Origin: Escherichia coli
GTDB taxonomy: Bacteria; Pseudomonadota; Gammaproteobacteria; Enterobacterales; Enterobacteriaceae
Assembly: GCF_003334335.1 (NCBI RefSeq)
Contig: NZ_QOWQ01000010.1
Strand: one strand, 5' to 3'
DNA: 64,000 nucleotides
The position numbers and the translations under genes are program-made. Numbering within the stretch: the first letter of the stretch is position 1; each line of letters starts with the position of its first letter. Positions 38,682 to 38,688 of the stretch are shown here, in pieces. The notes below the pieces were generated by a model. That model was not told the origin of the DNA, searched no databases, and worked only from the letters and a program-made list of their open reading frames with translations.

Positions 38682-38688
38682 TGTCGAA

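Follow-up and report, generated by a model that had tools for sequence, protein, structure and literature searches.

How do the transcripts of two convergent genes end when only a few base pairs separate their stop codons? This question is raised by yhbX and argG in a stretch of 64,000 nucleotides of Escherichia coli DNA (contig NZ_QOWQ01000010.1), which we refer to as the window. A first-pass annotation, made from the sequence, had described a short spacer with no hairpin, T-run or terminator for either gene. It proposed that both transcripts run into the opposing coding region as long antisense 3' UTRs, an arrangement it considered unusual and consistent with a later insertion of yhbX next to argG. 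We examined the annotation, the folding of the junction, alternative E. coli alleles and related genomes, and took the transcript evidence from the supplementary tables of genome-wide studies.

Spacing and transcript overlap at the junction

According to the RefSeq annotation of an MG1655 derivative, the local gene order is glmM, secG, tRNA-Leu (leuU), yhbX (+), argG (-), tRNA-Met (metY), rimP and nusA. Across the yhbX/argG junction the window is a 100% match to E. coli K-12 and many other strains. The features that define the junction are as follows.

37056-38681, + strand: yhbX coding sequence (RefSeq), 541 aa, phosphoethanolamine transferase / sulfatase family, with a PF00884 match
38682-38688, no strand: spacer between the two stops, TGTCGAA, 7 bp
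38689-40032, - strand: argG coding sequence (RefSeq), argininosuccinate synthase, 447 aa, ending ...LENKGQ*

The yhbX stop is the TGA at 38679-38681, and the argG stop is a TAA on the minus strand (plus-strand TTA, 38689-38691). Since both stops are placed by sequence and by annotation, the 7-bp spacing is real, as the first-pass annotation had stated. The same junction is found in 5177-5182 of the 5426 complete E. coli genomes. Among the sampled strains, variants near the junction fall at window positions 38648 and 38682 only: the former is a common C>A substitution, as read on the argG strand, 7 nt beyond the hairpin described below, and the latter is a rare change in the spacer base adjoining the yhbX stop. 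At the other end of the gene, the mechanical list of open reading frames starts yhbX at a TTG at 37023 (552 aa) where RefSeq uses the ATG at 37056 (541 aa); the 552-aa form is found in a few database entries.

The close spacing could also be an artefact of annotation, with YhbX really ending near L523 and argG having a 3' UTR of about 60 nt. The feature that gives this idea some footing is the C-terminal tail of the protein:

38625-38678, + strand: codons of the 18-residue C-terminal YhbX tail, RKEFTEDKQGNPTPEGQG, beyond the last conserved residue, L523 (from the alignment)

The conserved core of YhbX ends at L523. Among nine aligned relatives, seven stop 3-9 residues past that point, another has a tail of 12 residues, and the ninth extends further with a tail peculiar to it. 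The last 18 residues, which include the codons of the hairpin, therefore find no counterpart in most relatives. Still, there is no in-frame stop before 38679, so translation must reach the TGA. The frame and its stop are identical in all sampled E. coli strains, and one homologue is likewise long-tailed. We regard an annotation artefact as highly improbable. A word-indexed protein search with YhbX returned near-identical E. coli entries only, and the more distant relatives came from a search of representatives. The nearest ones outside the E. coli cluster share 41-48% identity, and those from Buttiauxella (41-46% identity) stand in unrelated gene neighbourhoods.

Is such a tight convergent junction uncommon? 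We collected the convergent gene pairs of the window from the RefSeq annotation and a heuristic on open reading frames. Names beyond position 58000 were assigned from the sizes of the open reading frames and from published pair names.

yhbP/yhbO: spacer -21 bp (overlap 59177-59197), convergent, names assigned as above
yhbS/yhbQ: spacer -14 bp (overlap 58401-58414), convergent, names assigned as above
mtgA/yrbL: spacer -4 bp (overlap 9585-9588), convergent
yhbX/argG: spacer 7 bp, convergent
murA/sfsB: spacer 47 bp, convergent
unnamed pair: spacer 113 bp, convergent
mtr/yhbW: spacer 117 bp, convergent
greA/yhbY: spacer 155 bp, convergent
obgE/dacB: spacer 185 bp, convergent

The spacing is 7 bp or less in four of the nine pairs. 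Furthermore, the ExcludonFinder study reported 165 convergent excludons in MG1655, each seen in half or more of 58 RNA-seq sets (NAR 2025, PMC12288877). Its Table 1 names argG-yhbX, and all four tight pairs of the window are in the list. Transcript overlap at argG-yhbX is already on record, as one case among many, and the suggestion that the junction is unusual does not survive these counts.

The 3' end of argG and a hairpin in the yhbX codons

A consensus terminator scan called no intrinsic terminator 3' of the yhbX or the argG stop. No T-run of at least five lies within 180 nt 3' of either stop, which bears out the first-pass annotation on this point, and the junction itself has no A- or T-tracts. 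An Rfam scan of the window returned two tRNAs and the rimP leader only, with no match at the junction. However, the consensus scan also missed the obvious terminator of an alternative E. coli allele, probably (this is a guess) as greedy stem extension consumed the T-run. For this reason, hairpins were then sought directly. The features on the argG strand are listed here.

38655-38679, - strand: argG 3'-end hairpin (direct hairpin scan and fold), 11-bp stem, 3-nt loop
38650-38652, - strand: steady-state argG mRNA 3' ends (published; MG1655 3320017-3320019, + strand there)
38450-38654, - strand: C-rich, G-poor untranslated RNA past the hairpin (composition), putative Rho-loading (rut) region

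On the argG-strand RNA the hairpin reads AACCCUGCCCU-UCA-GGGGUGGGGUU. Its stem is uninterrupted and GC-rich, including three G-U pairs, and has a free energy of -16.3 kcal/mol in the direct scan. It starts 10 nt past the argG stop and is the centroid structure of the region downstream of argG. The hairpin overlaps yhbX codons N534-G541, the last eight of that gene, together with the T of its TGA. The claim that neither gene has a hairpin is thus wrong for argG, which this stem serves. The tail that follows, ACCUUGCUUAUCC, is without a U-tract: the 8 nt after the stem (tail ACCUUGCU) hold three U, below the mark of about five or more in 8 for an intrinsic terminator. On the plus strand the fold is weaker, because the G-U pairs turn into C-A mismatches there. 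With a weakened plus-strand fold, no A- or T-tract and a position ahead of the yhbX stop, the junction does not qualify as a bidirectional intrinsic terminator.

How much weight can a single hairpin carry? Only about 20 hairpins of comparable quality occur in the 128 kb that make up both strands of the window (about 1 per 6.4 kb per strand), and many of them are genuine terminators. The chance that one would start within 40 nt past a given stop is therefore about 0.6%. Compared with shuffled sequences, the 71-nt region taken as a whole has an unexceptional folding energy (z = -0.6), and that of a 141-nt region is likewise not significant; therefore the case for the hairpin is built on its unbroken stem, on where it lies and on the experimental 3' ends. 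It is invariant in the eight sampled E. coli strains, and for that reason covariation gives no support. A 56-mer across the junction exceeds a control segment of yhbX only slightly in conservation (identical in 79% and 72% of genomes, respectively). We also considered whether the hairpin belongs to a repeat family and rejected this, as it is present in a single copy in the window and at a median of one place per genome.

The published 3' ends agree closely with the position of the hairpin. To compare coordinates, we took the window position as 3358669 minus the MG1655 position. Given its regulation by ArgR, argG is expected to be derepressed in minimal medium. In Supplementary file 1 of Adams et al. 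2021 (eLife, PMC7815308), the dominant Term-seq 3' end lies at MG1655 3320017 (+) and is classed as "primary argG, antisense yhbX". The one sheet to list it is that for M63 minimal glucose (M63 0.4), and the flanking sequence given there places the end 3 nt beyond the hairpin. An independent analysis, the TRS paper (Nat Commun 2023, PMC10687069), lists in its Supplementary Data 2-4 a "Primary" argG terminus at 3320018/19 for a coding sequence at 3318637-3319980, and prints the identical stem-loop with -17.1 kcal/mol. Overall, the mapped ends lie 37-39 nt beyond the argG stop and 3-5 nt beyond the hairpin, which puts them some 27-29 nt within the yhbX coding sequence when its stop codon is counted. 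The argG transcript does enter the opposing coding region, as the first-pass annotation held. Its steady-state 3' UTR, however, is just these 37-39 nt long, which disagrees with the long antisense UTR predicted for the argG side.

Adams et al. also measured the effect of the Rho inhibitor bicyclomycin by DirectRNA-seq, and their Supplementary file 2 (PMC7815308) gives a Rho termination region at MG1655 3320019. The upstream/downstream reads are 50/44 without the drug and 64/212 with it, and the Rho score is 3.76 (p = 1.4e-7), as obtained from one culture in LB in which read counts were low. Without the drug the downstream/upstream ratio is already 0.88, so antisense promoters inside yhbX, rather than read-through from argG, may supply part of the downstream signal. 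The composition of the RNA points in the same direction as the drug response: the 205 nt past the hairpin contain 52 C and 37 G, and C/G ranges from 1.2 to 1.7 when the first ~200 nt are taken in windows of 78 nt. From this composition we place a candidate rut region at 38450-38654. The first-pass annotation had named Rho-dependent ends immediately after the stops as the outcome that would contradict it, and for argG the published bicyclomycin data describe such an end. Its statement that there is no terminator is correct as far as a consensus intrinsic terminator is concerned and incorrect in that argG has a published Rho-dependent end at the hairpin. With an ordinary mapped Rho-dependent 3' end of this kind, the junction is not unusual in this respect either.

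Several other signals lie on the same strand farther along. An "orphan" Rho termination region at about 36926, minus strand (MG1655 3321743 +), is listed by Adams et al. (PMC7815308) shortly before the yhbX start, on the strand opposite to that gene. In LB its upstream reads number 199, compared with 50 over argG, which suggests that an antisense transcript starts inside yhbX. Promoter-like minus-strand sites are present inside yhbX at 37470-37443, 38311-38282 and 38590-38563.

Could the hairpin instead be a weak, non-canonical intrinsic terminator, releasing the transcript at or near the stem without Rho, while the bicyclomycin effect belongs to unrelated antisense transcripts of yhbX? The 11-bp, GC-rich stem has an energy like that of real terminators in the window, the 3' end of argG is precise and close to the stem, and the tail ACCUUGCUUAUCCUCU is moderately U-rich. 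The ratio of 0.88 without the drug and the orphan Rho region, taken as an independent antisense RNA, would also fit. However, of the properties of an intrinsic terminator only the GC-rich stem-loop is present; the U-tract is missing, with the three U in 8 nt noted above, the consensus scan calls no terminator, and the site has a published Rho region in place of Rho independence. Transcripts released at intrinsic terminators usually end 7-9 nt into a U-tract, and the mapped end of argG is only 3-5 nt past the stem. The features of the site instead fit the Rho-dependent class of Dar and Sorek. We therefore consider an intrinsic mechanism, the main rival to our preferred reading, unlikely, although some release at the stem itself may occur.

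That class was described by Dar and Sorek 2018 (NAR 46:6797, PMC6061677) as Rho-dependent 3' ends just past stable stem-loops without U-tracts, with C exceeding G downstream; some of these ends lie inside downstream coding regions, and they are ascribed to protection from 3'-5' exonucleases. The argG end shares the following of these traits: a discrete and precise end just past a stem-loop, no U-rich tract, a location in the neighbour's coding sequence, C in excess of G, and read-through that increases in the published data when Rho is inhibited. We found no substantive difference, with the exonuclease step carried over to argG by analogy.

Our preferred reading is accordingly that argG is likely to end by Rho-dependent termination within the antisense of yhbX, followed by trimming back to the protective hairpin. 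RNA polymerase would pass the argG stop, cross the 7-bp spacer and enter yhbX in the antisense direction. There Rho would load on the antisense RNA, because the RNA past argG is untranslated, C-rich and G-poor, and would free the transcript somewhere downstream. Finally, 3'-to-5' exonucleases would trim the transcript to the 11-bp stem-loop and so leave the discrete end that is mapped past the stop. As for the opposite strand, the yhbX transcript probably ends by Rho acting on the untranslated antisense of argG.

A different possibility, the one put forward by the first-pass annotation, is that neither gene has a working termination signal and that the long mutual antisense 3' UTRs interfere with each other, either as a regulatory excludon or by polymerase collision. 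The presence of argG-yhbX among the convergent excludons speaks for it, as do the lack of a terminator-like site 3' of yhbX and the roughly 4-fold rise of antisense read-through into yhbX on Rho inhibition. On the other hand, a discrete argG end appears in two data sets, and Rho curbs the read-through. Neither the tables of Adams et al. (PMC7815308) nor those of the TRS paper (PMC10687069) list a yhbX 3' end or an end antisense to argG, which fits low transcription of yhbX in those conditions and makes polymerase collision unlikely as the main mechanism. In addition, others have placed a synthetic operon, with strong terminators on both sides, in the argG-yhbX intergenic site. This suggests that argG can function without its native overlap, although argG is proposed there, rather than demonstrated, as a selection marker for transduction. 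Taken together, we see quite a small chance for mutual interference without termination. Compared with the convergent excludons (PMC12288877), the pair is alike in its convergent orientation, very short spacer and overlapping transcripts, as evident from the mapped argG end inside the yhbX coding sequence and from Table 1 of that study. It differs in that argG contributes a stable overlap of only ~30 nt, and reciprocal regulation or RNase III processing is putative here.

The variable gap between leuU and argG

If argG ends with the help of Rho at a hairpin in the codons of its neighbour, what did it use in the absence of yhbX? The comparison of alleles and relatives draws on the following features.

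36605-36634 plus GTTTT, + strand: secG-leuU intrinsic terminator, conserved, which anchors the variable leuU-argG gap on its left side
36640-38696, no strand: yhbX cassette, ~2.06 kb (allele comparison)
E. coli JNE151685 (NZ_AP027258), locus 2822-3992: alternative cassette, equivalent to window 36640-38696
E. coli JNE151685, locus ~3949-3978: argG intrinsic terminator of the alternative allele

A different cassette of 1.17 kb with a GC content of 0.37 takes the place of yhbX in 237 of the 5426 complete E. coli genomes, and in about seven genomes neither arrangement is intact. The alternative cassette encodes a protein of 317 aa on the argG strand, for which a family search gave nothing informative beyond an N-terminal helix-turn-helix domain, its only match. 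The two alleles diverge from just past the leuU terminator to a point within the final two or three argG codons. The left border of the yhbX cassette is directly after the leuU terminator, and the right border is in the argG stop and the last two or three codons (38689-38697). The alternative allele keeps an argG terminator of the ancestral type, GGCCGCAAAUGCGGCC followed by seven U (z = -3.4).

The TRS supplement (PMC10687069) also lists an RNA 3' end between leuU and yhbX, at about 36791 on the plus strand (MG1655 3321878 -). With the leuU terminator ~157 nt behind it and the yhbX start 265 nt ahead, this end could belong to RNA that has read through the secG-leuU terminator, or else to a short 5' transcript of yhbX.

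In a scan for ArgG among species-representative genomes, which covered 80 loci from outside Salmonella and the other Escherichia species, no relative of YhbX was found within 4 kb of argG. Among 16 Enterobacterales relatives compared, 15, including Citrobacter, Kluyvera, Superficieibacter and Enterobacter, have a hairpin and T-rich tract 10-25 nt past the argG stop. In Citrobacter, Kluyvera and Superficieibacter this terminator has the form GGCCGC-loop-GCGGCC with six or seven T after it, a type to which the terminator of the alternative E. coli allele also belongs. In Phytobacter the argG terminator is ~160 nt past the stop, and Escherichia sp. ESNIH1 has none in the 200 nt examined past argG. 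In the relative loci compared (L003-L015 and L025, with argG at ~4001-5344), leuU is 66 bp to 3.6 kb downstream. It is only 66-260 bp past the argG stop in Citrobacter youngae, C. werkmanii, Phytobacter and several Enterobacter, where some gaps contain REP-like palindromes. Other cargo of ~0.5-3.6 kb occupies the gap in Superficieibacter, Kluyvera, one of two Pluralibacter genomes, strain RIT691 and ESNIH1. Since the size and cargo of the gap differ among relatives, the interval between leuU and argG is a variable spot across Enterobacteriaceae.

The composition of the cassette sets it apart as well: GC is 0.42 for the cassette and 0.43 for the yhbX coding sequence (GC3 0.42), against 0.53 for argG (GC3 0.58) and 0.52 for the window. 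The end of ArgG itself differs between alleles, reading ...NKGQ* next to yhbX, ...NKVK* in the alternative allele and ...NKAK* or ...NKGK* in relatives. The last residue is K in 14 of 16 relatives and in the alternative E. coli allele, S in Pluralibacter gergoviae, and Q in ESNIH1 and in E. coli with yhbX. These end residues, as judged from the sequences, are consistent with a cassette border inside the final argG codons.

The absence of yhbX at the 80 loci, its low GC, the alternative cassette and the loss of the ancestral-type terminator only in company with yhbX together support yhbX as a later insertion abutting argG, and on this point the first-pass annotation is upheld. In the history we envisage, an AT-rich yhbX cassette would have entered the variable leuU-argG gap in the E. 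coli lineage and removed the intrinsic terminator that relatives have shortly past argG. The yhbX frame would now read through the hairpin to its stop 7 bp from argG.

Does the cassette qualify as a genomic island at a tRNA? Like tRNA-adjacent islets, it follows leuU directly after the terminator, has atypically low GC, varies between strains with alternative cargo, and has its nearest homologues in other contexts. It differs from them in that it consists of a single gene, yhbX, without an integrase, and in that its border is past the tRNA terminator and not in the tRNA 3' end. There is no repeat of the tRNA 3' end: the best leuU-like match scored 22, not above chance (shuffle mean 20.9, sd 3.6). 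A search for direct repeats flanking the cassette found none.

Meaning for argG and its neighbours

The canonical argG terminator of other Enterobacteriaceae and of the alternative E. coli allele offers the closest comparison for the hairpin of the yhbX allele. Both have a GC-rich stem of similar strength 10-25 nt past the argG stop. The yhbX-allele hairpin, by contrast, is unrelated in sequence, is without the run of six or seven T, sits in the neighbour's coding DNA and is Rho-sensitive. It is conceivable that the gain of yhbX had consequences by giving argG a Rho-dependent, hairpin-protected end in place of an intrinsic terminator. Derepression of argG when arginine is limiting might silence yhbX by way of the antisense overlap, as a working excludon, or the stability and level of argG mRNA might differ between the yhbX allele, carried by 95% of E. 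coli, and the allele with the ancestral terminator, carried by 4%. We hold this extension to be doubtful and put little faith in it.

The argG-yhbX junction belongs to a known class and is already contained in published genome-wide tables. It carries little weight beyond annotation, for which it provides a clean worked example: a terminator that is not seen in a short convergent spacer is not therefore absent, because the signal can sit in the coding sequence of the neighbour and need Rho. For strain engineering at the argG-yhbX site, an insert in the 7-bp spacer parts argG from its native 3' hairpin. What is modestly new is that the insertion of an accessory gene appears to have removed the intrinsic terminator of a housekeeping gene, and that a hairpin in the C-terminal codons of the newcomer marks the 3' end. 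E. coli thus holds two natural alleles, with and without the ancestral terminator, between which the cost of such a swap could be compared.
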